A stretch of 64,000 nucleotides of DNA from Ignavibacteriota bacterium (GCA_963776275.1 CAVZMI010000023.1:128001-192000); one strand, 5' to 3'; positions 259 through 23,940 are shown, counted from the stretch's first letter. Notes: a model not told the origin generated them from the sequence alone. A program made the numbers and translations.

Positions 259-318
259 TGACCTGCCCCCAAAGTGATCAAAAGTATATTATGGATCATA
301 GGGGGCAGCAATTGGTAG
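259..318 (+). mobile_element. Repeat A copy 1: IS3-family left-end remnant
   Basis: TGACCTGCCCCCAAAGTGATC... with a TGATC..GATCA hairpin; homologous to 2866, 11865 and 22699. Confidence 0.6.
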
Positions 319-537
319 TCCGATCCCACAAATGTGGGATCGAGATTTTACCCCGAGTTAATCGAGGGGCTCGTACCGACTTCCCTCGACCCGCCTTCGG
401 CGGGCTCGGGACAGGTCGTCGGGACGGACTTATTTATCCGCCGTCCTAAAGTCGAAGATCCTGAGCCTGTCGAAGGGGACTGCTATGCTGAGGTTAACCG
501 CTCTATCCGCTGGAGTGTTATTTACGTAGACGGAGCG
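317..537. repeat. Repeat B copy 1: nested REP-like palindromes immediately before an attC R' box
   Basis: GATCCCAC..GTGGGATC, CCCTCGACCCGCCTTCGGCGGGCTCGGG and CCTGAGCCTGTCGAAGGG; core is nearly identical to 15093-15220. Confidence 0.8.
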
Positions 538-559
538 CCCATTCGTTATGTTGCAATTG
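536..559 (+). repeat. attC right end (R' GTTATGT) opening cassette 545-1950
   Basis: GTTATGTTGCAATTG (545-559) is the exact reverse complement of CAATTGCAACATAAC (1936-1950). Confidence 0.8.
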
Positions 560-592
560 CCTGTCATGATTCGAAAAACGAGGAGAAAAATC

Positions 593-1933
593 ATGAAAGC
601 TCTTTTCATAACACTTCTGCTCGCTGTTGTGGTGGGCGTGTGCGATGCACAGTGGTTTCAGCAAAACAGCGGGACAACAGCAGATTTGTTTTCCGTTGCT
701 TTCAGCGACTCTAACCATGGGGTGGTTGTTGGTGATTCAGGGTTAATCCTTCAAACCACTAATGGCGGATTAAACTGGATGCGGCGGCAGAGCCGGAGGT
801 CTTTGGCGCTAACCTCTGTCTACTTTCTTAATCCGAGCAATGGTTGGGTTGTGGGCTATGCTGGCGATTCCGTTTTATATACATCGGATGGTGGAATCAA
901 TTGGGTACCAAGAGGTTTGGCTAGTGGTAACTACTTGAGGTCGGTCTATTTTGTAAATCAGAATATCGGATGTGCTGGGGGCATGCAGTATGTGTTGTGG
1001 GGGAACAGGCCGTGTGTCAGCTATACTACTGACGGAGGATTTCACTGGACTAGGGCGGCATGGGATTCTACGGACTTGGGCGGTGGATTCGTTTCATCTA
1101 TTCACTTCTCAGACGAATCTCACGGCTGGCTTGTAAGAAATGAAGATGATCTGTTATATGACTCTTCAAACTTCCTTCCCCAAGTTGCTAGGACTACTGA
1201 CGGGGGTCGCTCTTGGATGTGTGTTCAACTGGGGAATGTGCACATAACTTCAATGGAGATTGTGGGGCTTAACAACATCTGGCTTGTGGGATCCACTAGC
1301 GACAGTGCGAGATATATTCTGCATTCGACAAACGCGGGTAACTCTTGGAATGCCTTAATAGGAAGGATGCGAAGTTCTCTTCAATCTGTGTGCTTCGTTG
1401 ATACAGTCAACGGCTGGGCGATTGGTCGGAATTATGATACCAGTGTAATTCATCAATCTGACACTAGTGTGATTCTAAGGACGACAAACGGCGGAATTGA
1501 TTGGAAGGAGCAATATCGAATGCCTGTTAGTCTATCGGACGCAGGGTTCCGTTCTATTTCATTTGTCGATGTGAACAACGGTTGGGTAGTTGGAAGCAAT
1601 GGCGTAATCCTTCATACGACTAATGGCGGTCTCACGTTTGTTGAATCATCAACGACAGGTGAGGTGCCAGAGACATACGCACTCAAGCAAAACTACCCGA
1701 ACCCTTTTAATCCAGCGACAAATATTTCTTTTAGTCTTCCATCAAAATTTTTTGTTACGTTGAAGGTATTTGATATTATGGGAAGAGAAGTAGCGACCAT
1801 TGTTGCCGAAGATTTATTGGCAGGAAGTTACTTGCGGCAATGGAATGCAGCAAATATGTCGAGTGGAATTTATTTCTATCGTTTACACGCTGGTTCATTT
1901 ACGGAAACTAAAAAACTAGTTTTACTCAGATAA
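593..1933 (+). CDS. YCF48/BNR-repeat beta-propeller secreted protein with T9SS C-terminal domain
   Basis: AGGAG RBS, signal peptide MKALFITLLLA, repeated TT(N/D)GGxxW Asp-boxes, NYPNPFNP...ETKKLVLLR. Confidence 0.85.
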   Translation: MKALFITLLLAVVVGVCDAQWFQQNSGTTADLFSVAFSDSNHGVVVGDSGLILQTTNGGLNWMRRQSRRSLALTSVYFLNPSNGWVVGYAGDSVLYTSDGGINWVPRGLASGNYLRSVYFVNQNIGCAGGMQYVLWGNRPCVSYTTDGGFHWTRAAWDSTDLGGGFVSSIHFSDESHGWLVRNEDDLLYDSSNFLPQVARTTDGGRSWMCVQLGNVHITSMEIVGLNNIWLVGSTSDSARYILHSTNAGNSWNALIGRMRSSLQSVCFVDTVNGWAIGRNYDTSVIHQSDTSVILRTTNGGIDWKEQYRMPVSLSDAGFRSISFVDVNNGWVVGSNGVILHTTNGGLTFVESSTTGEVPETYALKQNYPNPFNPATNISFSLPSKFFVTLKVFDIMGREVATIVAEDLLAGSYLRQWNAANMSSGIYFYRLHAGSFTETKKLVLLR

Positions 1934-1950
1934 AACAATTGCAACATAAC

Positions 1951-2070
1951 CATTTTAAAAAGGAAAGAGTCCCCGCTAAGCGGGATTTCACAAAAAGCGT
2001 TCAACAAGTAAATAGTAATATCCCGATGTATTCGCAGCAAGGATGTTGACAACCGAACGCGACCGGCAGC
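1951..2070 (+). repeat. Repeat E copy 1 (directly after an attC R'' box)
   Basis: ~120 bp nearly identical to 6101-6219; contains a CCCGCTAAGCGGG palindrome. Confidence 0.85.
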
Positions 2071-2103
2071 CCTCATTACAGTGACCAGCGGAAGGATAAT
2101 TAA

Positions 2104-2514
2104 ATGGAGAAGAGTAAGTCGCTATTAATTTTATACTTTTTAATTATTAGTCTTTTGTTTGCCGCCTGTGGAAGAAGAACCATAAAAACCTCCTGCGGCG
2201 ATTTCAAGATCGGCAATCCTTTTTTCCAACCAGTGCAAACCGAAGCCGGAATGCATAACATGCTGTTATTGCCGATAAGCCGTAAGGATGGCGATACGTT
2301 ATCTGTGGATGATATACGATGCATAAAACAGTCACCTCCTTATTTCGGCAGTACATGGGATTCCGGCGGCGGATATGATCTCCGTTATCCCTGGTACGCG
2401 CGATCGAGGAATGGTGAAATGGTATTGGTGTTCGGCGGGGCTCATGTGGGTGACCCGGTGCTCTATTGGGGGGAAAATGATCCGATAAAAATGAAAATCG
2501 ACGAAAGTAGATGA
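2104..2514 (+). CDS. Hypothetical lipoprotein, possibly truncated by in-frame TGA codons
   Basis: Lipobox FAAC; the frame continues past TGA codons at 2512 and 2587 to a CGCATAAC box at ~2654-2661. Confidence 0.55.
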   Translation: MEKSKSLLILYFLIISLLFAACGRRTIKTSCGDFKIGNPFFQPVQTEAGMHNMLLLPISRKDGDTLSVDDIRCIKQSPPYFGSTWDSGGGYDLRYPWYARSRNGEMVLVFGGAHVGDPVLYWGENDPIKMKIDESR

Positions 2515-2865: not shown

Positions 2866-2932
2866 TGACCAGCCCTCATAGTGATCCAAAGTATACTATG
2901 GATCAAAGGAGGCAGCAATGGGCATAAAACGA
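2866..2932 (+). mobile_element. Repeat A copy 2: IS3-family left end with RBS and transposase start (MGIKR)
   Basis: TGACCAGCCC..GTGATCCAAAGTATACTATGGATCAAAGGAGGCAGCAATGGGC. Confidence 0.65.
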
Positions 2933-3034
2933 TTATGCGAAGTGACGTTTACTTCTATCGCTTGAAGGCAGGCTCATTTGTCCAGACTAAGAAGTTGTTG
3001 ATTTTAAAATAGTATTGTATCGAAATATAATAAC

Positions 3035-3209
3035 ACGGCAGCTCTCGTTAGGGCTGCCGTTTGATTATTAGCAGCTGATTGCTTACTTTCAATTGTTCCT
3101 CCAAAGATACATCCGACAACCAGCGTTGTATTGAGTTATAGATATTCGAGCGGTATATTAATCAAAACTAATCAGTGCTATAGCTTGGCTCCAGTCTATT
3201 AGGTGGCAC
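3035..3209 (+). repeat. Repeat C copy 1: terminator-like hairpin, conserved spacer, decayed attC right arm
   Basis: CGGCAGC..GCTGCCGTTTG...GATACATCCGACAACCAGCGTTGTA; ends CAGTGCTATAGCTTGG..CTATTAGGTGG. Confidence 0.8.
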
Positions 3210-3323: not shown

Positions 3324-4094
3324 ATGGGCATCTTTAGAAATCTTTCGACACACATTTACATGAAGCACATCAGTATGTGTTCTTGCGTTATTATCTCTCT
3401 GTTCATATTGAATGGCTGTAATTCTGAAGAGAAGGATTGGAATCAGACGCAGACTATCAATAAAATCGATAGTTATACTGACTTTATTAAGAAATACCCC
3501 GAAAGCCAATATGTGGATTCCGCAAAAGTGTTAATCAATGAGATAGGAAAAAAGAATAGACTAGAAAAAGTGTTAGCAACTCGAGACATCGATGCATTAA
3601 AAGCATTTGTATCTGATAGTGCAAACGAAGATATATTGAAGCGCTTTAAGATCAAGGCTGGTGATTCAATAACACTTGCTTCACAGCCGGAGAAAGCAAA
3701 AAAGGGCTACCAACTCTCATTAAAGCCCTCAAAAGAACATGGAAATTTTGATTATTTAATATCGATTCCGCCCAATACCAATGTGGATGTTGATTTCAAG
3801 GAAGATGTTCATGTCAAAATCGTAAAGGGAGATCTTGTGGTGTCTATCAAAAACGGTTATACTGCAGGCTATGTTACCACAAACAAAGAAGCAACCTTAT
3901 TAATAAAAGTGAAAGATAATAGAAAAATCATTCTTAGTGCAGAATATGTCAATGTTGACTCTAATATGTTTGTGTATCTGACTGAATCAGAATTTATCAT
4001 TACACGTACAGAAAGTGCGTCGATAAGAAGGGAATTGTTGAAGAACTCCTTTTCCTTATCAAAAGGAGAAATTTATTATGTGAAATTCGACTGA
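3324..4094 (+). CDS. Hypothetical lipoprotein
   Basis: AAGGAG RBS, lipobox LNGC, 'Y..FI.KYP.S.Y...A' helical motif. Confidence 0.7.
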   Translation: MGIFRNLSTHIYMKHISMCSCVIISLFILNGCNSEEKDWNQTQTINKIDSYTDFIKKYPESQYVDSAKVLINEIGKKNRLEKVLATRDIDALKAFVSDSANEDILKRFKIKAGDSITLASQPEKAKKGYQLSLKPSKEHGNFDYLISIPPNTNVDVDFKEDVHVKIVKGDLVVSIKNGYTAGYVTTNKEATLLIKVKDNRKIILSAEYVNVDSNMFVYLTESEFIITRTESASIRRELLKNSFSLSKGEIYYVKFD

Positions 4095-4203
4095 TTTGTT
4101 AGGTCTAAAATGTGAGTAGGTGTAGTTGTGCTTGTATGTCTTCACACAAATTAAAATCATTCAAGCTAAAAATTACTTGAGAATTTTCAAGAGTCACACT
4201 ATG

Positions 4204-4240
4204 CGACAGCTCTACTTCAGGGCTGCCGTTTGATCATTAT
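4204..4240 (+). repeat. Repeat C head only (copy 2)
   Basis: CAGCTCTA..AGGGCTGCCGTTTGATCATTA. Confidence 0.65.
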
Positions 4241-4288: not shown

Positions 4289-5002
4289 CTATAGTTTTTT
4301 CAGATATGACCAGGGCCAATTCTCATAAAAATCGACCAATCCTGCTGAGACAGGATTCATGAGAATATAATCGACGATACGTGATAAATCGTTATCATCT
4401 CTCACTACGTGATCGTAGCTTTCGTTTTGCCAAAAAGCACCATTCCGAATTAGAATGCGGTTTGCCTCACGCGCGGTATAACGTTTCAATGATTGCATTA
4501 TTCGAAATAACGGTGGGCTGTTGTAGGTCGGAATGTCATTCCGACCTACATCGTTTACGGCCGATTCTTCAACTTGATTTGTAGTATTTATTTCAAATAC
4601 CATATGCACATGATTTGGCATGATACAATATGAGAGCAAACCGTATTCTTTCTGATCACGATGATGGATGGATTTTTTCACAATGCTAGCAATTTGCGGA
4701 TCTATCAACCATAGCGGACCTGTTTCGTTTTTATCGAGCAATCTATCGAATCGAGCAAAATAATCATCATTAAATTCCATCCACTCATCCGTTCGGGTTT
4801 TACGATTATCGATTTCTTCGATACGTTTTTTCACCCGTTCACGATCATAGCGCAACTGTTCAATCGCTTCCGCAGGTAAAGACCCTGCTAATCTAAACGT
4901 CACAAAATATGTTGCCTCTGACGGTTGATAGTGCGGGAGGTGGCGGCGATAGTAGAACTTGTCTACCGAGTTAGATTGTAGTGAGTTTATTGTAGTCTTC
5001 AT
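4289..5002 (-). CDS. REP-associated tyrosine transposase (RAYT, Y1/HUH)
   Basis: RRHLPH, YFVTFRL, HUH motif IMPNHVH, FWQNESYDHVVR, YILMNP; start moved to MKTTI. Confidence 0.9.
   Translation of the reverse strand: MKTTINSLQSNSVDKFYYRRHLPHYQPSEATYFVTFRLAGSLPAEAIEQLRYDRERVKKRIEEIDNRKTRTDEWMEFNDDYFARFDRLLDKNETGPLWLIDPQIASIVKKSIHHRDQKEYGLLSYCIMPNHVHMVFEINTTNQVEESAVNDVGRNDIPTYNSPPLFRIMQSLKRYTAREANRILIRNGAFWQNESYDHVVRDDNDLSRIVDYILMNPVSAGLVDFYENWPWSYLKKL
4522..4550. repeat. GTAG REP embedded in frame within the RAYT gene
   Basis: TGTAGGTCGGAATGTCATTCCGACCTACA, a perfect hairpin. Confidence 0.85.
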
Positions 5003-5087
5003 AATAATATGTTGGTATATATATTTACCGTGGGAATAGAGGATTCTGTGACAGTGGATTGTGGATAAGCGAGTCAGGTTGTCGCTT

Positions 5088-5158
5088 TTATGGTCGATTC
5101 GGCGAATCGACCTACATTGTTTACACATTGTAGGTCGGGATGCTATCCCGACCATAAA
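5088..5158. repeat. REP doublet (REPIN-like) upstream of RAYT
   Basis: TGGTCGATTCGGCGAATCGACCTACA...TGTAGGTCGGGATGCTATCCCGACCATA as an inverted pair. Confidence 0.85.
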
Positions 5159-5260
5159 CGGATATGGTCGAATCGGCCCGCCACTACACTCCGGCGCGGG
5201 CACATCCGGCTCGGATTCCCATGGATAAGACCTCTAATCGCTTTATCCGTCTCTCTTTTA

Positions 5261-5418
5261 ATGGCAGTTCTAGGTTAGGGCTGCCGTTTGATTATATGGA
5301 GTGGATTTCGTACCATTCAATTGTACCCACAAGATACATCCGAAAACCAGCGTTGTAGTGAGTCATAAATAATCAAGCTTATCGGTGACACAGCTTAGTG
5401 GCCATCCGTTAGGCGCCC
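5261..5418 (+). repeat. Repeat C copy 3 ending in an attC right arm (R' GTTAGGC at 5408)
   Basis: ...CAGCTTAGTGGCCATCCGTTAGGCGCCC; near-complementary to GGGCAGCCCAAC at 6089-6100. Confidence 0.8.
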
Positions 5419-5435
5419 GCAAGGATAATTTTGTT

Positions 5436-6088
5436 ATGAAGAAGTCCGTATTACTATATATCCTAGTGACACTCATATTTTTGGCTCAGTCCTGTAAAGA
5501 CAAGTCTGTCGAACCAGAAATACCATCTGACATCGCTGTATTCGTCCAAAGCCAGAATCTTCCAAAGGTGCAACCAATTAAGATTTTCCTTGAAATTCAG
5601 CAGGAGAATCTAATAGCCTTTAAGGTTAGCTATGGAGAAGCTCAAGATTGTCAATCGGGTTGTTTCTACAGCATCGCTTATGGCCTCAAGGTGCGGACGA
5701 AGATTGGCTGGCTCCGAATCAACGACTATGACCAGAACGACCTTAGCCATGTCATCAACTACGACTTTGACAGCACTGAAACGATCCTTTTTTCAAATCC
5801 ATTTTGGGATCAATTGAACGCAGCTGATTATTGGGTGTACCGATATGCTTTTCTCCCCTTGCTTGTTAGTGACAAGGACGTCCCTACGAATGTTCTCCAG
5901 CGAATAGCTGAAGGATTATACACGTATATTGATTCTTACTTAGCTTCTTTGTTGCTACTTAATTCAAAGGTTCAGGAAAGTAAGCCATTCTCACACTTCT
6001 TGCGGAATTACCCGTATTTCAGGGTGATGCTTATCAGGAAGTACGAGGAAAGGCTCGCGAACTGCTGAATTCACTTGGAAATGGTTGA
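5436..6088 (+). CDS. Hypothetical lipoprotein (cassette gene; probable frameshift near 5983)
   Basis: MKKSVLL..AQSC lipobox; an alternative frame AILTLLAELPVF...LGNG* ends just before R''. Confidence 0.65.
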
Positions 6089-6100
6089 GGGCAGCCCAAC

Positions 6101-6219
6101 CATTTTAAAAGGAAAGAGTCCCCGCTAAGCGGGATTTCACAAAAAGCGTTCAACAAGTAAATAGTAATCTCCCGATGAATCCGCAACAAGGATATTGACA
6201 ACCGAACACAACCGGCAGC
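6101..6219 (+). repeat. Repeat E copy 2
   Basis: Near-identical to 1951-2070 and again directly after R'' (..CCCAAC). Confidence 0.85.
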
Positions 6220-6241
6220 ACGCGATGACGGACGGCGAGAT

Positions 6242-6388
6242 TTGGTTCCATCACTTTAATCCATACATCTAGCTTCAGGGTTGCTTCTACTTCGATCTAA
6301 AGCCGGGCGGCATCACGAAAGCAGGTTCAAATAGTATTTTCTGTAATATTTTTTGTTGGGAAAATATCGCGGATATATGGGCGAAGGA
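6242..6388 (+). repeat. Repeat D copy 1 (with AT-rich tail)
   Basis: GGTTCCATCACTTTAATCCATACAT..GTTGCTTCTACTTCGATCTAAAGCCGGGCGGCATC. Confidence 0.85.
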
Positions 6389-6523
6389 TCATGGAAGTAA
6401 GACAGGTGTATGATAATAAAAAAAAGCAATTATCATTGGTACATCATTCGGGGGCAGGTCAATCAATAATTTTATAGCGACACTTGATCGGAGACACCTC
6501 AATTGAGAACCAAAAGTGGGAAT

Positions 6524-8998
6524 ATGAATCGAACAGAGATAGATAATTCCAGAAATCGGATGATTATTATTGTCCTCCTGTCGATGTTCGTCGCATTGAC
6601 ACACATTCAGCAATCTCCTGGCCAGACGACGCCATATGCCTGGAAGAGCGTTATCGTCGGTTGCGGAGGATTTGTGCCCGGGATAGTGTACCATCCTGTT
6701 GTGAAGGACCTGATGTATGCCCGCACCGATATCGGTGGCGCTTATCGATGGGATAAATCGATCAGCAAGTGGATACCATTGAACGATGAATTGACGATCA
6801 ACAATCTGGATGCCGAATACATGGGTGTACTTTCCATTGCCGTCGATCGAAATGACACGAATCGCGTTTATATGGAATGCGGGGAATGGACAGAAGCGTG
6901 GGCACAGCCAGGGGCTCTTTTTTCCTCGACAGACAAGGGTAATTCATGGACGATTCATCGATTGTCGGTTAAAATCGGCGGGGATGAGGATGGACGAGGC
7001 GCAGGAGAAAGACTTCAAGTGGATCCGAATTTAAACTCCATTCTTTTCATGGGGACAACAGCCGACGGATTATGGAAATCTACAAACTATGCGTCTACCT
7101 GGACAAGAATTTCTTCCTTCACTCCGACAAATGTGAATTTTGTTTTATTTGATTCGACGGGCGGCTCTTATGGCGACACTACGCAACGTATTTTTGTGGC
7201 CGCTGCCAATACAACCGGTAAAAGTCTGTATCGAAGCGATGACGGAGGTGCTTCATGGAGAGTTGTGGAAGGGCAACCGGGTGGGGTGATGGCGATAAGG
7301 GCGGCTCTCGCCGATAGCATACTCTATATAACGTTTTCAGATTACCCGGGTCCGAACGGTGCAACCGCAGGTTCCGTATGGAAATATAGCATCCCGGTGG
7401 GAAATTGGACGGATATCAGTCCGTCATCAGGTTATTACGGATTCAGCGGCGTTTCTGTTTGCTCCCAAAATCCGGATATTGTCATAGTGAGTACACTCGA
7501 TCGTTGGTCACCGATGGATGAAATATATCTTTCCACAAATGGCGGTGGTACCTGGTCTTCCCGCCTTTCAAATGCCACCATTGATTGTAGCTATGCGAAT
7601 TACAATAAAAATCTGAATCGCGAATGGCTTGCCTGCCTGGAAATAGATCCCTTTGATTCAAGCGGGGCGATGTTCGGAACCGGATACGGAATTTGGGTGT
7701 GTAACGATATCTATGCTTCCACTCCGACATGGTTTTTCAGGGATGAGAATGTGGAAGAAACCCAGACGTTTCAAATCGTCACTCCTCCGTATACAAATCT
7801 TTTATCGGCCATGGGAGACGTTGACGGATTCAGGCATGATAGTCTTGATGTATCTCCGCCGGATAAATACAGTCCGGCAAAATGGTCGACAACGTCCATT
7901 GCGTTCGCTGAAAATGCACCTGAAAAAGTTGTCAAGACTTACAACTCTCCATCCTGGGTTTCAGTCGATCATGGTGCCTACTCACTCGATGGAACGATCA
8001 CGTGGCACGATTTCGATACATGGCCGGCCGGAACATCCGATGGCGGCGTGTGGTCTATCGCACTTTCGGCAGACGGGAGCACTATAGTATGGAGTCCGAT
8101 CGGATCGGTGATGTCATATTCTACAGACGATGGATCAACATGGACGGCCTGTGGCGGCGGTGTCCCACTCATCTCTCCGGTTGCGGATAGGGTCAATACG
8201 GAAAAATTTTATGCTTATGATGGAATAAACGGACAACTATGGATTTCTTCGGATGGTGGAAAAACTTTTCAAAGAGGTGTTGGAAATTTGCCGGATGTTC
8301 CAAGCTGGCTCCCGCAGGACGGAAATATTTCCGCGGTACCGGGTCATGAGGGAGATCTTTGGATTTGCTGCGGCCAGGGCGGACTTTACCGAACTACCAA
8401 CTCGGGCGTAACAGCGACGAAAATTAATGCCGTAACTGCGGCTTATCGTGCAGGATTCGGCAAGGCATTGAATGCGGGTGGTTACCCTTCCATCTATATG
8501 TTTGGAACCGTCAAAAGTGCATTGGGTTTTTTCCGTTCGGATGACATTGGCGCATCATGGACAAGAATCAATGACGACAAGCATCAGTACGGAAAGATTA
8601 ATCAGATTATGGGCGATCCATGGGTTTATGGCAGGTGTTATGTGACACCGGTCGGACGAGGGATATTATATGGAGAACCGGTTGATAGCACATCTACATC
8701 CGTTGAGAGTAAGGGGGTGATTAGCAATATTCCCGCTGAATATGGATTGTTCCAGAATTATCCTAACCCCTTCAATCCGTCGACAACTATTTCTTTTAGC
8801 CTTCCAACACGGTCTTTTGTCTCGCTGAAAGTATTTGATTTGATAGGAAGAGAGGTCGCAACAATTGTCTCGGAAGAATTGTCGGCGGGGAATTACTCGC
8901 GGCAATGGAATGCGACAAATATGCCGAGCGGGATTTACTTTTATCGTTTACAGGCAGGTATATTTACAGAAACGAAGAAACTTGTTTTGCTGAGGTAA
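6524..8998 (+). CDS. GH74 xyloglucanase-like glycoside hydrolase with T9SS CTD
   Basis: GGGFVPGI-like motif, ARTDIGGAYRW and SAMGDVDGF catalytic-Asp regions, RSDD.G.SW Asp-boxes, CTD; exact start uncertain. Confidence 0.85.
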   Translation: MNRTEIDNSRNRMIIIVLLSMFVALTHIQQSPGQTTPYAWKSVIVGCGGFVPGIVYHPVVKDLMYARTDIGGAYRWDKSISKWIPLNDELTINNLDAEYMGVLSIAVDRNDTNRVYMECGEWTEAWAQPGALFSSTDKGNSWTIHRLSVKIGGDEDGRGAGERLQVDPNLNSILFMGTTADGLWKSTNYASTWTRISSFTPTNVNFVLFDSTGGSYGDTTQRIFVAAANTTGKSLYRSDDGGASWRVVEGQPGGVMAIRAALADSILYITFSDYPGPNGATAGSVWKYSIPVGNWTDISPSSGYYGFSGVSVCSQNPDIVIVSTLDRWSPMDEIYLSTNGGGTWSSRLSNATIDCSYANYNKNLNREWLACLEIDPFDSSGAMFGTGYGIWVCNDIYASTPTWFFRDENVEETQTFQIVTPPYTNLLSAMGDVDGFRHDSLDVSPPDKYSPAKWSTTSIAFAENAPEKVVKTYNSPSWVSVDHGAYSLDGTITWHDFDTWPAGTSDGGVWSIALSADGSTIVWSPIGSVMSYSTDDGSTWTACGGGVPLISPVADRVNTEKFYAYDGINGQLWISSDGGKTFQRGVGNLPDVPSWLPQDGNISAVPGHEGDLWICCGQGGLYRTTNSGVTATKINAVTAAYRAGFGKALNAGGYPSIYMFGTVKSALGFFRSDDIGASWTRINDDKHQYGKINQIMGDPWVYGRCYVTPVGRGILYGEPVDSTSTSVESKGVISNIPAEYGLFQNYPNPFNPSTTISFSLPTRSFVSLKVFDLIGREVATIVSEELSAGNYSRQWNATNMPSGIYFYRLQAGIFTETKKLVLLR

Positions 8999-15240: not shown

Positions 15241-15262
15241 ACCTAAAACGAGGATTCAAACA

Positions 15263-15838: not shown

Positions 15839-15877
15839 TGGATTGCCGCACGTTAACACTATCCAGAAGGTGCCATA

Positions 15878-16405
15878 ATGGATATTTATGAAGAGCAGGA
15901 ATGCCAAGATAGTATATTCAAAATAAATTCATTATTGAATTGTAGCATTTTCGATGTTGTTAATTCTGGCAATATATTACAATCCGCTGCTTTCATTGAG
16001 TTAATAATATGTCTTCGTGACCTTCTGCATAAGACGGAAAAGTACGCGAAGCGCATCTCGTTTACCGACGACATCATAATGAATGAATATGTTCATGATA
16101 TAACCGATGCTGTCACTGCTACTCGGGATGCTTGTTGCCATCTCGATTCTTTCAAGCGGGTATTTGATGACCAGGGAAATAGAGGATCTTTTAACGTTAT
16201 CTATGGCAAAGGCTATTTCGCTAAGTTTGGTGATGTGGAAATGAAGTCCGAGTATGAGGACGATACTGCTGTCTATTACGGTAAGAATCGTCTTTATATC
16301 AAACGTCACATTGTTCGGGCCTTTAGAGAAGCTACAACTCTTCTCATGCCGATTCTTACAGGAAAGGATATTAATAATGGCACACCTGCTGACTGCTCAA
16401 TCTGA
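15878..16405 (+). CDS. Putative HEPN-like protein
   Basis: Helical N-terminal half with RxxxxH motif (RDACCH). Confidence 0.55.
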   Translation: MDIYEEQECQDSIFKINSLLNCSIFDVVNSGNILQSAAFIELIICLRDLLHKTEKYAKRISFTDDIIMNEYVHDITDAVTATRDACCHLDSFKRVFDDQGNRGSFNVIYGKGYFAKFGDVEMKSEYEDDTAVYYGKNRLYIKRHIVRAFREATTLLMPILTGKDINNGTPADCSI

Positions 16406-16433
16406 CAAGTGTAAACTGCAGGTCCTCATAAAT

Positions 16434-16725
16434 CTGGTTCCATCACTTTAATCCATACATCGAGGCTCCAGAGTTGCTTCTACTTCGATCTAAAGCCGGG
16501 CGGCATCGGACATTTTTTGTTGGGAAAAAAGCGGATTTATGGGCAAAAGGTTAGGGCTGCCGTTTGATTCTTAGCAGCTGATTGCTTACTTTCAATTGTT
16601 CACCCAAAGATACATCCGACAACCGGCGTTGTATTGAGTCATAGATAGAGATTCAGCTTTTTTGATCCAGATATTTGGGCGACGTGGTAATCAAACTGAT
16701 CAAGGCGACATCTTAGCCGAAATCC
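16434..16725 (+). repeat. Repeat D copy 4 fused to repeat C copy 5 (attC right arm truncated before R')
   Basis: D 16434-16550, then GTTAGGGCTGCCG...GCGACATCTTAGCCGAAATCC. Confidence 0.8.
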
Positions 16726-16900
16726 CTCTTACTGCACATTAGAGCAAGATATTATATTTTCAAAAAGTGCAAAAGGGTAGTTAGTAGAAATTGCATAAAT
16801 GATATATACGCTAAATATAATTTCTCTTTTTTAGTGGTCATAATAAAGTTGTCTATTGGGGAGAAGAACTATTGTGAATATTTGAAGGAGGAACTGTATT

Positions 16901-18199
16901 ATGGAAACAATAACTGGGAAACTATTAACATATACTAAATGGATTGTAATCACTCTAATTGTACTAGCAATTATCATCACTGCATGGAACTTCTTTTTAA
17001 TAAAGGCAACATACGATTATATCTTTCAATATCTTGCTTCCAGTATTGGATTAAATATTTGGTTAATTAGGATAATATCAATTGCATTTAGTCTGTTGGT
17101 TCTTATTTATGGAATAAAATGGTTATGGAGAGTATTATCACCGTCACCGTTAATTAAGTCGAAAGAAAGAAATAATGCTCTTCTAGGCTTGAGTGCTTTA
17201 TTAATATTATTTTGCTTAATGATGTGGTTTTTTACAAAGAATGACATTTATAATAAAATTGGGGAAGCCCAAAAATGTTATGCGGCAACACCCGATGGTT
17301 ATGAATATGTTGATTGCAGTTATAAAGTTCACCCGATCTATGGAACAGAGGTAAAACATGTGACCCCTGAAATTGCGATTATTATTGAAGACAAAAGAAT
17401 ATCTGAAGTGACGAGAATCGTGCCTAATAGAAATTTTAGATTTTTCTCTCCAGATGGCCGATCACTAATTTATTACTATAAGCGTCCTAACGAGAAACTT
17501 GAGTTTTTCTTTCAACCTGGTAGGCATCCTCAATTTAATGAAGAGTTACTGCCCATTACTCCAGAGATTGTGAAACAACTGTTTGAATACTACGAAAATG
17601 GAAAAGACTCAATGATTATCGGGAATGATATTAAGGATAATATTTTGAAAGCTCAAAAAGAATTTGAAACGAAATATAATGAAAATAGTATTAAACAAGG
17701 GACACAAGTCGATATTTATGAATCTTACATTAACCCATCAATAACAAACTCTGGTACGAGTACAGATGTGTCTGTAACTATTGTTGATGAGAATGGTAAT
17801 AATATTGCTTCTGTTTCGAGTGCTATTGCTAATGTTTACAATCAGACTGGGAAAAAAGGGAATACAGGCTTGTTGAGAAGCTCATTTATTCATAAAGCAG
17901 GATTCCAAGAATTGTATGAAGGCAACTCTGATATAATTACAAAATTAAAATTAAGTAGCCACACTGATTATTTGGCAATTGGCAAAATTAAATACTCGAT
18001 GCGACAGGGAACATTGGTTGAAGGGACAATAATTTGTACCGTTTCCCTTGCCATGAACATAATATCAGTTAATAGCAAAACACTAACTAAGAGCTTTTCA
18101 TTTTCAGTTAATGGTAATGGGGCAACAGAATTCCAAGCGAAAGAAGAAGCGGATAAAATACTGGTGAACGTGTATTACAACGAATATTCATCATTATAA
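16901..18199 (+). CDS. Hypothetical membrane protein (3 N-terminal TMs plus a large soluble domain)
   Basis: AAGGAGG RBS; hydrophobic segments; AT-rich. Confidence 0.75.
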   Translation: METITGKLLTYTKWIVITLIVLAIIITAWNFFLIKATYDYIFQYLASSIGLNIWLIRIISIAFSLLVLIYGIKWLWRVLSPSPLIKSKERNNALLGLSALLILFCLMMWFFTKNDIYNKIGEAQKCYAATPDGYEYVDCSYKVHPIYGTEVKHVTPEIAIIIEDKRISEVTRIVPNRNFRFFSPDGRSLIYYYKRPNEKLEFFFQPGRHPQFNEELLPITPEIVKQLFEYYENGKDSMIIGNDIKDNILKAQKEFETKYNENSIKQGTQVDIYESYINPSITNSGTSTDVSVTIVDENGNNIASVSSAIANVYNQTGKKGNTGLLRSSFIHKAGFQELYEGNSDIITKLKLSSHTDYLAIGKIKYSMRQGTLVEGTIICTVSLAMNIISVNSKTLTKSFSFSVNGNGATEFQAKEEADKILVNVYYNEYSSL

Positions 18200-18201
18200 G
18201 G

Positions 18202-19116
18202 TTGAAGAAAATGAAAATAACTATTCACTTATTTATTCTTTTATTTGTTGTTTCTATATCATTATCGCAAAGCGCATTTGATAAATCGATCAACGAGGCA
18301 AGTGCTGATCTTGCTGAAAAGTTAATACGAAAGAATAAAATGAAAATAGCGGTCGTTTGTGTCACCGAGATAAATAAAGAAGAAACAGTTGTTGGGAAAT
18401 ATATAGCCGATGAAATATCAGTAAACATCGTTAACGGTACCGGGGATTTTGAGGTTTTTGATAGAGAAAGTTTATCTGGAATCACACAAGTAAAAAAATT
18501 AGTTGCAGAAGGCTACATCAACGTTTATAAGGCAAAAGAATTAGGGAAATTATTATCAGTCGAAGCAATTATTATTGGTAATTATACAGTAAAAAATAAT
18601 ACAATAAAGCTCACTTTATCAGCTTACAATTCATATTCTGGATTAGTAATTGCTTCGACCCACAAAGATTTACCTATAGACTCAGATGCCGGAGCATTAC
18701 TAGGTATTAACGTGGAAACAAATGGCAAAAGAAATAATTCTAATCGTGGATTCAATAATCGTCCAATAAATTCAAATGAAGATTATAATAATCCAAGAAC
18801 TGTCAGTCCCGACTGTAAAAAAAATAATACAGGAGATTACTGTTTTACAAATACTATGACGAAGACACCATTTACGGTAATAGTGTACTATCGCGAAAAT
18901 TCAAACGCAGGTCGTACAATGACAGTTCAAGCGGGTCAAACTCAATGTTTCAATAATTTCCCTGCTGGTCCGCATAATTATACTATTACCTATAAAGCAC
19001 AAGTCCCTATCATGAAGTTTCCCCCTGGTGCACCTACGATGGAACAAGATGTAATTTACTTACAAGGTCAAATAAATGTTGAGCAATGCAAATCTAAAAC
19101 ATTTGTTATAAAATGA
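18202..19116 (+). CDS. Secreted FlgO/CsgG-like domain protein
   Basis: Signal peptide; F.VFDRE.L, AKELGKLLSVEAIIIG.Y. Confidence 0.65.
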   Translation: MKKMKITIHLFILLFVVSISLSQSAFDKSINEASADLAEKLIRKNKMKIAVVCVTEINKEETVVGKYIADEISVNIVNGTGDFEVFDRESLSGITQVKKLVAEGYINVYKAKELGKLLSVEAIIIGNYTVKNNTIKLTLSAYNSYSGLVIASTHKDLPIDSDAGALLGINVETNGKRNNSNRGFNNRPINSNEDYNNPRTVSPDCKKNNTGDYCFTNTMTKTPFTVIVYYRENSNAGRTMTVQAGQTQCFNNFPAGPHNYTITYKAQVPIMKFPPGAPTMEQDVIYLQGQINVEQCKSKTFVIK

Positions 19117-19129: not shown

Positions 19130-19317
19130 GCCTATCCATAAAGATAAAGCTAGTATATAATTAAAAAGAGCATAAAAGAAATAAATCAAGCAGAGATTGC
19201 GATCATGTTGAAAAGTTGAGATGTAACGCGAGATTGAATGTACAGTGAATATATTTGTCCCGGATAGTACAAGCCAAGAAATTATCGTCGCCGCAGCTTA
19301 GCGCCCATCCGTTATAC
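19130..19317 (+). repeat. Long attC site (left arm decayed)
   Basis: GCCTATCCATAAGATAAAGCT ... GCCGCAGCTTAGCGCCCATCCGTTATAC. Confidence 0.7.
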
Positions 19318-19345
19318 GGCATTTGTAAAGAAATAGCATTTAAAT

Positions 19346-20821
19346 ATGTCTAAGAAAAATAAAAACCGAAAAAATAAGGGAGGTCGTAGGAACTATTCAA
19401 CACTCCAACAGCATACAAAAGCTGGCAAGAAACTCCTGCCTCCTTTTCTTCAAATTCCCAAATTACAACTCGGTTCTTGGCGAGATGATAGACTTCCAGA
19501 AATGATGTGGGCTGCTTTGATTGTTGGTAATCTAGATAGGGAACAGGCACTGGATACTTTCAGAGCAGTAGCAAATTATATCTCAAGTTTAAAGCAACCA
19601 GCAATTTTGGATGATATAACCCATACTACGCTTTCAAATGTTCCTACAGATATTCTTAAGGGCTTTATAAATGTATTAATCTGGCGACCAGATCAAGCGC
19701 GGATTTTAAGAAGTCTATTATTACTTGAAAATCTTCCTGCTTACACAACGTGGAAAGAACTTCTTCCAGACGATGGTTCACCAATCGATTTTATTCCATT
19801 AATGAATGCAGTTGCTAAAACTCTTGATCATCAATCACAAGAAGCCACTGATTGTAGGTGGATGCGAGTTATTGCTATGATGGCAAGTGGTCTCTTTCAG
19901 CTTCCATCTGAAGAAATGGCTAAGGAATTTGCCTATTATCCTAATGAAGGTGATATGAGAAAGGTTCGTCCATCTATTCGTGCAACGGAAGGAGCATTAT
20001 CGAGTATGGATGAGACTAAACGCGAATGGGCAACTAAGTTTTGGATGGAATGTTGGCAAAAGTCAAATTGTTTCCCTCTAAGAATTGCCAGTGACGACAA
20101 TCCTTCACTAAGTGGAACAACAGAGGATAAGGTAAAAATCGTTTATCAAGAATTAATCAAGCATTTTATGGCAACAAATATTACTACTGCAATTGATATA
20201 AAACACGATGTAGTATTTGGTATAGCTTTTTATTCATTATCTATTTTAAAAGAACTGTTACGCATAGGATCAACTCGTTCCATTCTTGCTCGTTCTGGTT
20301 TGCGTACACTTTTAGAATTATATGTAACCCTTAAGTATCTTGTCAATAAGAATGATCTTGAGTTGTGGAAATCCTTTCGTGTCTTTGGTGCAGGTCAGGC
20401 AAAACTTACTTTTCTAAAACTAGACGAAGATCCCAGTAAGCCGAGTTCAATTAACCTTGATACACTTAATGCGCTTGCGAATGAAGATGTTTGGCAGGAA
20501 TTTTTGCCAATAAATCTTGGCCATTGGGAAAATTCAAATCTTCGAAAAATTAGCATTGAAGCTGGAGTTAAAGATGATTATGACAGGTATTATTCTTGGA
20601 CATCATCATATTCACATGGCCATTGGGGTCCAATAAGAGAAACTGTGTTTGATATTTGTGGAAATCCACTTCACCGTCTTCATCGTATTCCTTTAATTTC
20701 GGCAAAACCTTTGCCTGATGTTATTTCCGATGCGTGTTATTTTTCAGATAAAATTCTCGATATTTTAAATTTAGTCTATCCTAATTTTCAACATAAGGTG
20801 AGCATAACAAATGCCGTATAA
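19346..20821 (+). CDS. DUF5677-like (HEPN-related) protein, integron cassette gene
   Basis: R.LLE....L.YL and Y...S.YSHG.W motifs; stop codon lies inside R''. Confidence 0.65.
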   Translation: MSKKNKNRKNKGGRRNYSTLQQHTKAGKKLLPPFLQIPKLQLGSWRDDRLPEMMWAALIVGNLDREQALDTFRAVANYISSLKQPAILDDITHTTLSNVPTDILKGFINVLIWRPDQARILRSLLLLENLPAYTTWKELLPDDGSPIDFIPLMNAVAKTLDHQSQEATDCRWMRVIAMMASGLFQLPSEEMAKEFAYYPNEGDMRKVRPSIRATEGALSSMDETKREWATKFWMECWQKSNCFPLRIASDDNPSLSGTTEDKVKIVYQELIKHFMATNITTAIDIKHDVVFGIAFYSLSILKELLRIGSTRSILARSGLRTLLELYVTLKYLVNKNDLELWKSFRVFGAGQAKLTFLKLDEDPSKPSSINLDTLNALANEDVWQEFLPINLGHWENSNLRKISIEAGVKDDYDRYYSWTSSYSHGHWGPIRETVFDICGNPLHRLHRIPLISAKPLPDVISDACYFSDKILDILNLVYPNFQHKVSITNAV

Positions 20822-21012
20822 CCAGCGGCTCAAGCTTACCGGATGAGCGTGAGTACTTTACGCATGGCTTGTGGTGGGTTTCAGTTTTCATTATAACGTT
20901 CTTTATACATCATGACTTTTGTGTAATTAATTATGTTATCAGAATGAATCTGGTTTCGTTTAGTACAATTTGAAAGTTATCAGTGCCGCAGCTTAGCCGT
21001 CATCCTTTAGGC
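20813..21012 (+). repeat. Long attC site (~200 bp), best preserved copy
   Basis: R'' GCCGTATAAC-CAGCGG-CTCAAGCT ... AGCTTAG-CCGTCATCC-TTTAGGC (R' has G>T); ACAAATGCCGTATAAC is the exact reverse complement of GTTATACGGCATTTGT at 19311. Confidence 0.85.
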
Positions 21013-21026: not shown

Positions 21027-21503
21027 TTGTACCATATGGATGAGTCATATTTCAACAAACAAGTAACACTAATTCGAACCATCGTCGGCGCTGTTCTGGC
21101 CCTTGCCTCGTTACTTTTCTTATGGAAAGGCATTTCTGGTATAGGTGAGATCGGATTGGATTTCCAATTCTTCAGTGGTAAATTCTCTACGACATCTGCT
21201 GGTTTTGCTTTATTATTTGCTGGAGTGATTCTTCTCTTACCACGTCGGCTTCCACAGGATGGTCGAACTAATGAACGACGTAGTCTTGGTCAAATGGCTA
21301 TCGGAATATTGTTCTATATTTTTATAGGTTTACTTCCAGTCATTGGCTGGATAGGCATTATAATTTATCTACACTATAATAGTCCTGATGATATAAAGAA
21401 TATCTCTGTGTTGGGAGCGTACGCTATAATGAGCGAGGTCCCACTTTTTTTCTGGGTAGTTCAGCAAGTGTCTAAACTTCTTCAAAGCGGGACAAAGAAA
21501 TAA
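21027..21503 (+). CDS. Hypothetical 4-TM membrane protein
   Basis: GGAGG RBS; four hydrophobic segments. Confidence 0.65.
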   Translation: MYHMDESYFNKQVTLIRTIVGAVLALASLLFLWKGISGIGEIGLDFQFFSGKFSTTSAGFALLFAGVILLLPRRLPQDGRTNERRSLGQMAIGILFYIFIGLLPVIGWIGIIIYLHYNSPDDIKNISVLGAYAIMSEVPLFFWVVQQVSKLLQSGTKK

Positions 21504-21578
21504 TAATTCTCAAAATTCAGTCGAACTGGAAACTAATAGTTGCAGTCTAACTAACAGGTGTTCAAGGGAGGCAAAGTC

Positions 21579-22025
21579 ATGGCAGGATATATCTGGCAAT
21601 GCTCGCACTGTAAGCTAAAAGCTTCGTTCCCTGAGATGCAAGCACAAAGAGGCATAGTTACGTTTATCTGGCGTACGCTACTGCCCTCGAATTGGGACCA
21701 CAATCTTCTTGTGCGTGACTGTCTCAAGTGTAAGAGACGAGAGATGAGAATCACATTTGAATTTCCACGACAGCAGGATCCAGAATTGTTACAAATCAAG
21801 CAGATTGTTGGCATCTCTCCCAATGGAGGTGACTATTTGCCAATGATGTGGGAGTCATTTCCAGTTGGTCATATTGATCAAAGCTGGTTTAGTTTCAACT
21901 ACGTCAGACTTGTTGACGGAAAAATGAATTCCTGGGGACTTAACAAAGCCGCAGTATTTGATAGAGATGAATTTCGTAAGATAGTACAGATTTATGAACA
22001 AAGCACTGGCCGCACATTCCAGTGA
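21579..22025 (+). CDS. Hypothetical Zn-binding protein
   Basis: GGAGG RBS; CSHC...CLKC. Confidence 0.65.
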   Translation: MAGYIWQCSHCKLKASFPEMQAQRGIVTFIWRTLLPSNWDHNLLVRDCLKCKRREMRITFEFPRQQDPELLQIKQIVGISPNGGDYLPMMWESFPVGHIDQSWFSFNYVRLVDGKMNSWGLNKAAVFDRDEFRKIVQIYEQSTGRTFQ

Positions 22026-22135
22026 TTTCTATGGTACACTAATTAGTTGCTCATGCTGACGAATGTGGACTGCTGGGTCGCTCATACTACATTAGCAAAA
22101 GTCAAATATATCATTATTTCATATAAGGAGAAAAG

Positions 22136-22624
22136 ATGAGAGCATTTATTAGTTATAGTACAAAAGATCTTGATCTGGTCAACCAGATAGCTAATAGAAT
22201 CAACGGCCTCATCCAAGGTGTGAAATATTGGGACAAATCTAAGGAACCTGGAGAGCATGCTTGGAATAAAATTCACAGTTGGATTGATGAAGCGGATATT
22301 GTTTTTGTGTTGATTACAGGAAACACGGTTGAACGAGGAATATCCGTTGGAATGGAAGTCGGCCGAGCAAAAAAGGCGGATAAGTTAATTATCCCCATCG
22401 TTTCGAAAGATATTCTAAATACAGAGTTAGGTTTCTTATCTGAGATCGCCTACCAGCCCATCGATCTCAAGAATCCCATAGTGGCATTGGATGAAATCGA
22501 AAAAGCGCTCAGAATGAGAGTTGTTGCGAATCAAATGTTAGAGGAACAGAAAAAAAATATTCAGAATATATTCGTAATTATAGCGATCTTATGTATCATT
22601 ATCGCAATACTATCAAAAGAGTAA
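22136..22624 (+). CDS. TIR-domain protein with a C-terminal TM helix
   Basis: AFISYS..D, MEVG.A (catalytic Glu position), IIPI; hydrophobic C-terminus. Confidence 0.8.
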   Translation: MRAFISYSTKDLDLVNQIANRINGLIQGVKYWDKSKEPGEHAWNKIHSWIDEADIVFVLITGNTVERGISVGMEVGRAKKADKLIIPIVSKDILNTELGFLSEIAYQPIDLKNPIVALDEIEKALRMRVVANQMLEEQKKNIQNIFVIIAILCIIIAILSKE

Positions 22625-22698
22625 TATTGCAAACCTTAACAAATCGTGAAACATTCTTAAGGAGAAAAAATGGGCTACTGGATATATGGTTTCTTTCT

Positions 22699-22779
22699 TG
22701 ACCAGCCCCAAAAGTGATCCAAAGTATGTTATGGATCAAAGGAGGTAGCGATGGGCAGTTAAGCGGCCATCCGTTAGGT
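22699..22779 (+). mobile_element. Repeat A copy 4 (IS3 left end) fused to an attC right end (R' GTTAGGT at 22773)
   Basis: TGACCAGCCCCAAAAGTGATCC...AAGGAGGTAGCGATGGGCAG-TTAAGCGGCCATCCGTTAGGT. Confidence 0.7.
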
Positions 22780-22883
22780 GTTCAGATGGAATGTTATATT
22801 GAAGAAACACGCATCAAGGTTGTTATGAAGAAACGATATAAACACTAGTTAGACGGCAGCTGCCTGCAATACGAGGCTCACTT

Positions 22884-23810
22884 ATGATTCTTTATAAGTT
22901 TACATCTGCTCAACGTGGTATAGATATTCTTAGTAGTAATTCTATTCGTTTTTCTCAACTTGAGGTGCTTAATGATCCTTTCGAATCCTTCCCACCAGTT
23001 GAAGGTTTCATTACAAGAGAATTCGCATTTAAGATATTCGATTTCGCTTTGAGTAATGAAGATATGTTGAATAGCCTCATCGAGAAATCCCTTAAACGGA
23101 TGTATAACGACCTCTCTTATGCACAGAAAGCTCTCTTGGATTTCTACAATTATAAGATAATTGCTAAAAAGATTGTTGACGCTGAAATAGCAAAGAGGAA
23201 TACCACAATGGTAGACCTTCTTCGAACATTTCTTGAAACGAACTATGAGGCTTTTCTTTCAACAGTGAAACAACAGATTAATGTCTTATTAACAAAAAAC
23301 ATCTGTGTGCTAAGTCTTAGTACTGCAAAATCAAACCATCAAATGTGGTCACATTACGCAGATTCCCACAAAGGCATTGCTATCGGTTTTAATTCGAACG
23401 ATCCTTTTTTCTCTAAAGCCTTAGAAGTCCAATATCGAACCGAAAGACCAAAGATAAATCTCTTCCCAATTCCCGAAGAGGAACAAGAAAAACTAAAGCT
23501 TACAAAAGCCATTATGGCTACAAAGAATATAACTTGGCATTACGAAGAGGAATATAGACTTCTCAATGCAGCTGATTTGCTACAAAAAGATTCCGCGAAT
23601 GATCCGGATGGATTTCCGATCTTTGTGGCATCTTTTCCCGTCCAGTCTGTGCAGCATGTCATTTTCGGATGCAACACACCAGAAAATTATAGGAAAAAAG
23701 TGATCGAAATTGTCGTAGCCAAATACCCCGCCGCCAGATTAAGCGATGCTATCTTGGATACCCAGACTTTTCAAATCAATTTTAAGCCGTTAAATATGAC
23801 TGCGGATTAA
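22884..23810 (+). CDS. DUF2971 domain protein
   Basis: LYKF, LNDPFE, MWSHYADSHKGIAIGF, K...W.YEEEYR; followed by R''-like TAACCAGTCGTTC. Confidence 0.8.
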   Translation: MILYKFTSAQRGIDILSSNSIRFSQLEVLNDPFESFPPVEGFITREFAFKIFDFALSNEDMLNSLIEKSLKRMYNDLSYAQKALLDFYNYKIIAKKIVDAEIAKRNTTMVDLLRTFLETNYEAFLSTVKQQINVLLTKNICVLSLSTAKSNHQMWSHYADSHKGIAIGFNSNDPFFSKALEVQYRTERPKINLFPIPEEEQEKLKLTKAIMATKNITWHYEEEYRLLNAADLLQKDSANDPDGFPIFVASFPVQSVQHVIFGCNTPENYRKKVIEIVVAKYPAARLSDAILDTQTFQINFKPLNMTAD

Positions 23811-23940
23811 CCAGTCGTTCCCCGCTTATAAGCATATCAGGGCAAACGTTGTATTAAACTCAGCTCTTCTTGACAATCTCACCGCCTCTTCGTACAATAC
23901 ACGCATGAATTCTTCTCATTAATCAGCAAGGAATCCGACA

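Follow-up and report, generated by a model that had tools for sequence, protein, structure and literature searches.

An integrase-less cassette array in an Ignavibacteriota bacterium is largely a relic of hairpin-bearing attC sites, with units probably reordered through repeated modules

Introduction

The first 24 kb of a 64,000-nucleotide stretch from an Ignavibacteriota bacterium (GCA_963776275.1, CAVZMI010000023.1:128001-192000; hereafter the window, with positions counted from its first nucleotide) hold about 20 open reading frames (ORFs) separated by spacers of 40-810 nt. Do these genes form an integron cassette array and, if so, what now moves them? The original prediction read 259-23830 as cassettes without the integron integrase IntI, whose spacers are mosaics of five non-coding modules (A-E). 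Exchange was attributed to the module repeats, or to machinery of the repetitive extragenic palindrome (REP) or insertion sequence (IS) type. Here we report that the region is probably a decayed chromosomal integron array, a relic of the type called a cluster of attC sites lacking integron-integrases (CALIN), in which units appear to have been reordered by homologous recombination between modules.

Cury et al. in 2016 reportedly defined a CALIN as at least two clustered attC sites without an integrase. Elements that target attC sites include the IS1111-attC group and group IIC-attC introns. One survey (Cury et al. 2016, PMC4889954) places half of all CALINs in genomes that lack IntI, and gives attC sites a variable terminal structure (VTS) of 20-100 nt. 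A structural study (Nivina et al. 2016, PMC5027507) gives 57-141 bp for attC sites and states that those of sedentary chromosomal integrons (SCIs), such as the Vibrio cholerae repeats (VCRs) of Vibrio, have a longer VTS and can form complex branched structures; its rule of 6-bp spacing between extra-helical bases is matched by two unpaired bases in the sites described below. Integrons and CALINs have been recorded for Ignavibacteriae and Chlorobi (PMC9024848). REPs and bacterial interspersed mosaic elements (BIMEs), with their REP-associated tyrosine transposases (RAYTs), appear in PMC2817692 and PMC3337134 as palindromic mosaics in intergenic DNA with more than 100 copies.

Results

Spacer ends belong to the attC family of integron-bearing relatives

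The window lies on contig C23 of a 38-contig metagenome bin (G000; 3.7 Mb, 96.4% complete, 5.3% contamination), of which C2, C4, C6, C7, C8, C25, C30 and C38 are other contigs. All seven right ends that had been claimed are present. Those with the core G at 545, 5408, 15229, 19311, 21006 and 22773 are on the + strand and lie in spacers just 5' of ORFs; the seventh, at 3198, is a degenerate copy with the core ATTAGGT. Run on both strands of the whole genome, the right-end expression, SSCAT(C/T)(C/T) followed directly by (G/T)TTRRRY, gave 88 matches in 3.7 Mb, and therefore fewer than one would be expected by chance in 24 kb; six occur here. Both exact complementarities predicted between cassette ends were also found, 545-559 being the reverse complement of 1936-1950 (15 bp) and 19311-19326 that of 20807-20822 (16 bp), so that two of the seven candidate starts are complementary to their own R'' flank; for the remaining five no partner exceeds 7 bp. 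Left cores (R'') occur at 1944-1950, 6096-6102, 20816-20822 and 23805-23811, and 20816-21012 has the inverse R'' and R' cores of an attC site at its two ends. Elsewhere in the genome, cassette start and R'' are exactly complementary over 9-13 bp in five pairs on C30 and C4, and matching right arms and left arms (YTAAC, then CAG..GCTCAAGCTGAC) cluster on C4, C30, C6, C25 and at two more places on C23.

We searched both flanks of six intI genes from the same order (G229, G178, G104, G186, G292 and G154). In the first four, dense arrays with arms as in the window lie where a divergent array would be expected, with 16, 22, 9 and 15 motif matches on the array side and 1, 1, 0 and 0 on the far side, respectively. 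From these four arrays we took 33 complete attC sites (155-201 nt) and trained a covariance model, R1, on them, with no sequence from G000. The sites share a canonical structure: a 7-bp R box, spacers of 3 nt on one side and 6 nt on the other, an L stem (GCGCT/AGCGC), one unpaired C, 6 bp (AAGCTG/CAGCTT), one unpaired A and three more pairs, with a long variable middle. The extra-helical bases, C16 and A23, are exactly 6 bp apart, and the inverse cores of the family are CTAAC and GTTAG. In the alignment of the 33 sites 95.8% of cells pair on this structure, and in three L-stem pairs both partners change in a compensatory way from GC to CG, in six sequences per pair. The observed values were never reached in 500 shuffles; sliding the partners gave 21-46% pairing.

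A lack of attC covariance-model hits had been named as what would speak against the array, and the result was the opposite. Scanned over positions 1-30000 with filters off, R1 matched 20816-21012 at 112.8 bits (E 1e-29 to 1e-30) over its full length, aligning to the entire L-box structure. This site reads, in order, R'' GTATAAC, CAGC, L'' GGCTCAAGCT, an AT-rich VTS, L' GCAGCTTAGCC, GTCATCC and R' TTTAGGC. Eleven additional sites in G000 matched at E<=4.4e-6, from loci on C4, C30, C23 and C25. Weak matches in the scanned part of the window (E 0.03-4.2) have right ends at 3204 (12.9 bits, E 0.03), 22779, 5414, 15235 and 19317, and each terminates exactly at the predicted core. Rfam (gathering thresholds, and E<=5) found only one tRNA and nothing attC-like in 1-31000. 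The relatives' arrays, the R1 match and the end complementarity together support integron-type cassette ends: the sites of the window are members of the attC family used by real integrons of the same order.

Most of the array is fossil, and nested hairpins are a trait of the order

The window contains one intact attC site and two cassettes with matched ends; the remainder consists of orphan left or right arms. Just one spacer is an intact attC site by the independent model R1; the array is largely a decayed, fossil one rather than a functional array of giant sites. On C30, five R1 matches fall within 12 kb, which places that contig under the CALIN definition.

Complete sites in G000 measure 197, 247, 308, 335, 389 and 409 nt. 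In the fold of a 406-nt stretch of C30 around the 389-nt site, the two ends pair and several hairpins branch off (z -7.6). Hairpins interrupt 8 of about 15 arms here, compared with 2 of 47 in the IntI-adjacent arrays. We considered that hairpin-interrupted L arms had accumulated after integrase loss and rejected this, since pattern counts over 101 same-order genomes show the arm type to be abundant in IntI-bearing genomes: interrupted and intact arms number 38 and 50 in G178, 35 and 35 in G229, 10 and 35 in G186, 6 and 123 in G113, and 4 and 237 in G339. Insertion of the CCCGC..GCGGG hairpin after loss of IntI was likewise rejected. In an array of G229 the same hairpin, as CCCGC-loop-GCGGG, forms the terminal stem in a short subtype of attC of about 60 nt; sites of about 225 and 330 nt in that array have right-arm hairpins resembling module B. 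Interrupted arms are thus common in IntI-bearing relatives, and nested hairpins are a trait of the order's attC sites, not a mark of decay. What is peculiar to G000 is the size of its sites and their breakage. The left-arm pattern itself occurs 237 times in G339, 123 in G113, 81 in G342, 50 in G178 and 35 in G229, all of the same order, and entire arrays are built on the hairpin-type arm at G178:C19:39234-67455 and G229:C5:113773-131914.

A second reading of these arms, which we hold tentatively and think less probable than a decayed array, is that attC sites in the order are open-ended scaffolds. They would take up nested hairpins and fused neighbours to about 400 nt while keeping the R/L frame, and the modules would take over shuffling once IntI is lost. 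The hairpin-type L arms of two IntI-bearing relatives, 38 and 35 in number, are in line with such a scaffold.

A sister genome shows rearrangement at module repeats

The sister genome, G001, is of the same genus, 99% complete and independently assembled; both assemblies are of metagenomic origin. The two genomes are 95-96% identical in the flanks, on the side of a tRNA-Val gene and from about 28932 of the window onward, and differ in between in the order and content of units. The part between them, a hypervariable island of some 36 kb, starts at tRNA-Val, about 6.8 kb left of the window, and encloses the array, which ends near 23853.

One unit, consisting of module C, L'-R', cassette 3, R'', E and D, lies directly 5' of the gene at 6503-8998 in G000; in G001 this unit and that gene are 10 kb apart and in reversed order. 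In a three-way alignment, the left part of G000 6040-6520 corresponds to copy b of G001 up to R'', and the right part to copy a from the D extension. The switch from copy b to copy a falls within a shared R''-E-D block of about 290 nt with no R' core in it, and this fits recombination between direct repeats, not IntI cutting between G and TT. The arm ahead of cassette 1 differs as well, with about 190 nt of hairpins in G000 and 24 nt in G001 between flanks that are 93-95% identical. Rearrangement at module repeats, as had been proposed, is therefore seen in a chimera in R''-E-D and in a hairpin indel, and the comparison of the two assemblies favours the view that units of the array may now be exchanged by homologous recombination between modules.

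No integron integrase accompanies the array

We searched for the integrase in six frames with TIGR02249 (cut-off 265 bits). None of the nine matches in G000 reaches the cut-off (best 137.6), and all nine skip model positions 181-235, as Xer-type recombinases would. G001 gave no match at E<=1e-30. A genome of the same family, G002, has a match of 484.5 bits, and 59 of 301 sampled genomes of the class exceed the cut-off. Upstream of the G002 intI, 40 kb contain no arm motif, and past the gene only 162 nt of the contig are left. Over 20 kb to the left, the 10 annotated ORFs include no recombinase, so the locus does not qualify as a complete integron. The claim that the array lacks an integrase therefore holds for G000, and with no integrase found in the genome the array, with its one intact site and orphan arms, may be classed as a CALIN-type relic.

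It could be argued that the integron is live, with an intI that is present but unassembled and an IntI that still moves cassettes between G and TT. C4 and C30 begin inside attC sites, so integron regions do break assembly; the bin is 96.4% complete, 24 of the 40 listed same-order genomes in the class sample have IntI over the cut-off, and one intact attC site and two matched-end cassettes persist. We nevertheless consider a live integron unlikely. The six-frame search of G000 detected no IntI-type gene fragment and the 99%-complete sister genome likewise has no match, most junctions of the window lack one arm, and no R' core is present in the block where G000 and G001 cross over.

Three modules are continuous with attC arms; D is an element without a hairpin

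Employing a repeat finder on 1-30000, we detected 19 direct-repeat families, which recover the modules in the copy numbers predicted: four of A (starts 259, 2866, 22699 and, diverged, 11873), two of B (370, 15123), five of C (3038, 4207 (partial), 5265, 14940, 16541), four of D (6240, 9096, 12732, 16432) and two of E (1951, 6103). Identities are 69-99% over 45-143 nt. All junction types of the composite spacer once proposed, R''-E-D-C-(B)-L'-R', occur, E-D and D-C once each, but the full tile is found in no single spacer. That spacers are made of repeated modules also stands, with the addition that at least E, B and C are physically continuous with attC arms.

Module E is a left arm in which R'' precedes the CCCGC..GCGGG hairpin and then TTTCAC..TCAACAAG; arms of this type are also present on C4, C6, C23 and C30 and in the relatives' IntI-adjacent arrays. 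Module B is a set of nested hairpins, one within the loop of another, that separate GCAG from AGCGCC in the right arm. Its copy at 370 contains an extra REP-like unit (444-503), a repeat also present on C7 and C8, and 15087-15135 matches an attC arm of C4 at 100% identity. Module C spans about 110-250 nt. It begins with a terminator-like hairpin (3035-3060 in one copy), of which there are nine true copies genome-wide, and its 3' end continues into ..ATCAGTGC(C/G)GCAG(C/T)TT.. and R'. Two units, H1 and H2, were found solely inside attC sites.

Module A is palindromic, with inverted ends TGA(C/T)CTGCCCC and GGG(G/A)GCAG(G/A)TCA that also occur singly. G000 has four to five copies, and one complete copy of 126 nt lies at 11873-11998. 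No target duplication was evident by eye. From its sequence, A looks like a small palindromic element, similar to a miniature inverted-repeat transposable element (MITE). A further inverted end of A (..GGGGGCAGGTCA) lies at 28851-28894, 6.2 kb right of the 22699 copy.

Module D always has the orientation of the genes and sits after one gene's stop codon and before the start of the next. A structured RNA or hairpin was considered for D and rejected, as only three trivial pairs are predicted and Rfam gives no match. Among 101 genomes of the same order, a D-C query matched four: G000, G001 and two with weak D-only matches outside arrays. Without a hairpin, and with weak relatives outside arrays, membership of D in attC is unsupported; D is a conserved non-hairpin element. 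All three of A, C and D are in essence specific to the genus.

A RAYT-like gene lies within a C-type spacer

The ORF at 4289-5203 matches the RAYT family NF047646 at 77.7 bits, just below the cut-off of 80. It lies within a C-type spacer, flanked by two C hairpins that are about 75% alike and in direct orientation. Paralogues are present on C38 and C2, contigs on which a genome-wide scan found no C hairpin. The score below cut-off, the direct flanking hairpins and the few copies do not amount to a REP/RAYT system. The suggestion of REP/IS machinery has its basis in the presence of this RAYT-like gene in the array; the gene scores just below its family cut-off, and the modules, with copy numbers of 4-10, are far rarer than REPs. 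As judged from sequence, it is possible that the RAYT-like gene moves modules. A second small Y1/RAYT-like ORF lies at 27327-27665, with direct repeats at 27232-27289 and 27690-27746 on either side.

More broadly, the modules might be non-autonomous elements of the REP, REPIN (paired REPs) or MITE kind, moved as single-stranded DNA by the HUH/Y1 enzyme encoded in the array, with folded attC sites as preferred landing places. Besides the position of the gene between two C hairpins, such movement could account for the presence or absence of hairpin units at exact L-arm positions, for the inverted ends and complete 126-nt copy of A, and for unit 444-503 as a member of a repeat dispersed to C7 and C8. 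We give it a low probability. Module copies are not in the hundreds, the hairpins around the gene are direct, not inverted, the paralogues have no C hairpin on their contigs, H1 and H2 are confined to attC sites, and CCCGC..GCGGG is the terminal stem of an attC subtype in relatives.

Contigs from public sequencing runs (contigs only, not reads) cover the region poorly, the best holding 0.32 of sampled words and others at most 0.08, with several genes uncovered; their joints connect copies of one module. Collapsed or chimeric assembly is very improbable as the source of the repeats and junctions: such contigs do break at modules and the bin is in 38 contigs with 5.3% contamination, yet the independent sister assembly has these modules too, and shares several junctions with G000 at 93-99% identity, and module copies differ by 1-30%, which collapse would not yield.

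Layout and gene content

The features are listed in Table 1. Among 20 ORFs chosen within 259-23830, 19 are on the + strand; the prediction that all genes share this strand fails for the RAYT-like gene (4289-5203). Several units contain two or three genes, and ORF 2104-2514 sits between a left arm and the following right arm. At the end of the array a truncated left arm, with R'' GGATTAAC to 23811 and then CAGTCGTTCCCCGC..., stops where homology to G001 resumes.

Table 1. Features of the array and its spacers in the window. The core G of right ends is given in brackets; R1 scores are those of the covariance model. T9SS, type IX secretion system.
Feature	Position	Strand	Remarks
Composite L'-R' arm ahead of cassette 1	259-547	+	A 259-319, small hairpins, B 370-443, REP-like insert 444-503, hairpin 504-530, L'+R' (G at 545)
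Cassette 1	545-1950	+	BNR/Sortilin-like, T9SS C-terminal sorting domain, ORF 548-1933 (Pfam)
Module E, copy 1	1951-2075	+	R''-proximal attC arm, CCCGC..GCGGG hairpin
136-aa ORF	2104-2514	+	no family match; 98.8% conserved in G001
A, C and degenerate L'-R'	2866-3204	+	A 2866-2924, C 3036-3180, L'-R' 3185-3204 (core ATTAGGT)
Cassette 2, 256-aa ORF	3324-4094	+	weak YfiO-like match; no recognisable R''
C-type spacer, upstream portion and C hairpin	4118-4239	+	partial C
RAYT-like gene (REP-associated tyrosine transposase / IS200-like Y1), 304 aa	4289-5203	-	Y1_Tnp E 8.6e-7
C, then L'-R' (G at 5408)	5263-5414	+	R1 7.8 bits, E 0.82
Cassette 3	5408-6102	+	ORF end 6068; R'' GCCCAAC 6096-6102, imperfect complementarity to start
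Module E, copy 2, with D and AT-rich extension	6103-6461	+	E 6103-6219, D 6240-6314, extension 6315-6404
Inverted end of A element	6418-6461	+	within the 6103-6461 block
Sortilin/BNR-like T9SS cargo gene, 831 aa	6503-8998	+	
Module D, copy 2	9095-9179	+	
SecDF P1-head-like gene and carbohydrate-binding module (CBM) + T9SS tail protein	9467-11833	+	9467-10711 and 10874-11833
Complete A-type palindromic element, ~126 nt	11873-11998	+	inverted ends TGATCTGCCCC and GGGAGCAGATCA; MITE-like
177-aa ORF	12112-12645	+	no family match
Module D, copy 3, with extension	12731-12860	+	
Two ORFs	13083-14851	+	13083-14150 and 14414-14851; no family match
C, B nested hairpins in L' between GCAG and AGCGGCC, L'-R' (G at 15229)	14940-15235	+	
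Weak PD-(D/E)XK-like protein and 175-aa ORF	15260-16405	+	
Module D, copy 4, short extension, C, degenerate L'	16432-16746	+	L' CATCTTAGCCGAAATCC, without GTT core
Two ORFs	16901-19116	+	16901-18199 and 18202-19116 (weak CsgG-like match)
Orphan L'-R' arm (G at 19311)	19279-19317	+	R1 5.3 bits, E 4.2
Matched-end cassette	19311-20822	+	DitA-like / DUF5677 defence candidate, ORF 19346-20821
Sole intact attC, 197 nt	20816-21012	+	R1 112.8 bits
Three-ORF unit	21027-22624	+	21027-21503, 21558-22025, TIR-domain protein 22136-22624
Module A abutting L'-R' (G at 22773)	22699-22779	+	R1 12 bits, E 0.053
DUF2971 / PDC-S31 defence candidate and truncated attC left arm	22884-23853	+	

By its content the array seems foreign: at 16-24 kb the GC fraction is 0.355-0.39, compared with 0.43-0.47 in the right flank (30-40 kb), and the DitA-like gene (262 bits), which has perfectly matched cassette ends, occurs in one of the 101 same-order genomes, G000 itself. 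Defence candidates (DitA-like, TIR-domain, PDC-S31/DUF2971) occupy the right half. Directly 3' of the array lies a type IIG restriction-modification gene (23941-27024; 835 bits in PADLOC), the first 1.7 kb of which is 88% identical in G001.

The genes ending at 1933 and 8998 share a 246-nt 3' end (1688-1933 and 8753-8998, 78% identical) and otherwise differ. It encodes a T9SS C-terminal sorting domain, with many paralogous copies across G000; these sorting domains fit an Ignavibacteria-like lineage. Left of the window (C23:120830-121860), two partial copies of the tRNA-Val 5' end precede the intact tRNA-Val, with hairpins after each, and at the island onset 3' of tRNA-Val there are three copies of a repeat of about 75 nt and four tandem 34-nt GC-rich hairpin units. 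At C5:59090-59400 of G000, two tRNA-like sequences have a 19-nt palindrome (GTCCCGAC..GTCGGGAC) in place of the anticodon loop.

Discussion

If the region is a decayed chromosomal integron array, homologous recombination between modules of 100-300 nt would reorder and remove units, either by re-insertion of a circle excised between direct repeats or by unequal exchange, and IntI would act only if supplied in trans. Composite spacers would have formed by fusion of neighbouring attC remnants, together with gain and loss of hairpins, and orphan arms may have become fused to genus-specific filler (C), the palindromic A and the non-hairpin D.

Several observations weigh against this account. By R1, one of about eight junctions is an intact attC site and the other five right ends score at noise level. 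Module C is demonstrably attC-like over its last 45 nt or so alone; full-length homology of C to a standard attC site was tried and is unsupported (global alignment z 1.6-1.9). A, C and D are absent from 15 loci of six same-order genomes and G002, which gave only a 30-nt match to E. Two of the six IntI loci (G292 and G154) have no array by arm motifs. Many genes are host-type T9SS cargo in multi-gene units, unlike typical small cassettes, and recombination between modules is read from one clear chimera in two metagenomic assemblies.

Among known systems, the array resembles CALINs in its attC-bounded units of one orientation, the lack of intI and its kinship to arrays of IntI-bearing relatives; it differs in having a single intact site, single arms joined to repeats, multi-gene units and much longer sites. 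With SCIs of the Vibrio VCR type it shares lineage-specific similar attC sites, a long branched middle, the 6-bp extra-helical spacing and defence cassettes. Unlike in SCIs, site length is 155-201 nt in relatives and reaches 409 nt in G000, hairpins stand within L arms and there is no integrase. Small palindromes in intergenic mosaics and a RAYT-type gene beside hairpins recall REPs and BIMEs; 4-10 copies instead of more than 100, one island plus a few attC arrays, and direct hairpins set it apart. The IS1111-attC group and IIC-attC introns are said to place foreign DNA at a fixed attC position in a comparable way. The inserts here are 40-190 nt long and consist of hairpins only, with no ORF, and the annotated ORFs include no IS1111-type or reverse-transcriptase gene.

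The titles, abstracts and passages covered by our literature searches contained no account of attC structure in Ignavibacteria, of hairpin units or RAYT genes inside attC, of attC sites of 155-409 nt with L-arm hairpins, or of a CALIN shuffled via its own repeats; where a paper contained both attC and RAYT terms, the co-mention was incidental.

Integron surveys rely on attC models tuned to about 60-140 nt. The lineage studied here combines canonical R and L boxes and extra-helical spacing with sites of 155-409 nt and hairpins in the arms. With such long sites and models tuned to short ones, cassette reservoirs of Ignavibacteria-like bacteria may exceed their reported size; if attC sites are indeed open-ended scaffolds, standard attC models, with their size limits, may count too few hairpin-arm arrays. 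The comparison with G001 offers a concrete case of a cassette array that appears to change through its own repeats after integrase loss, and bears on the origin of CALINs and on how long cassettes, including defence candidates, may remain exchangeable.

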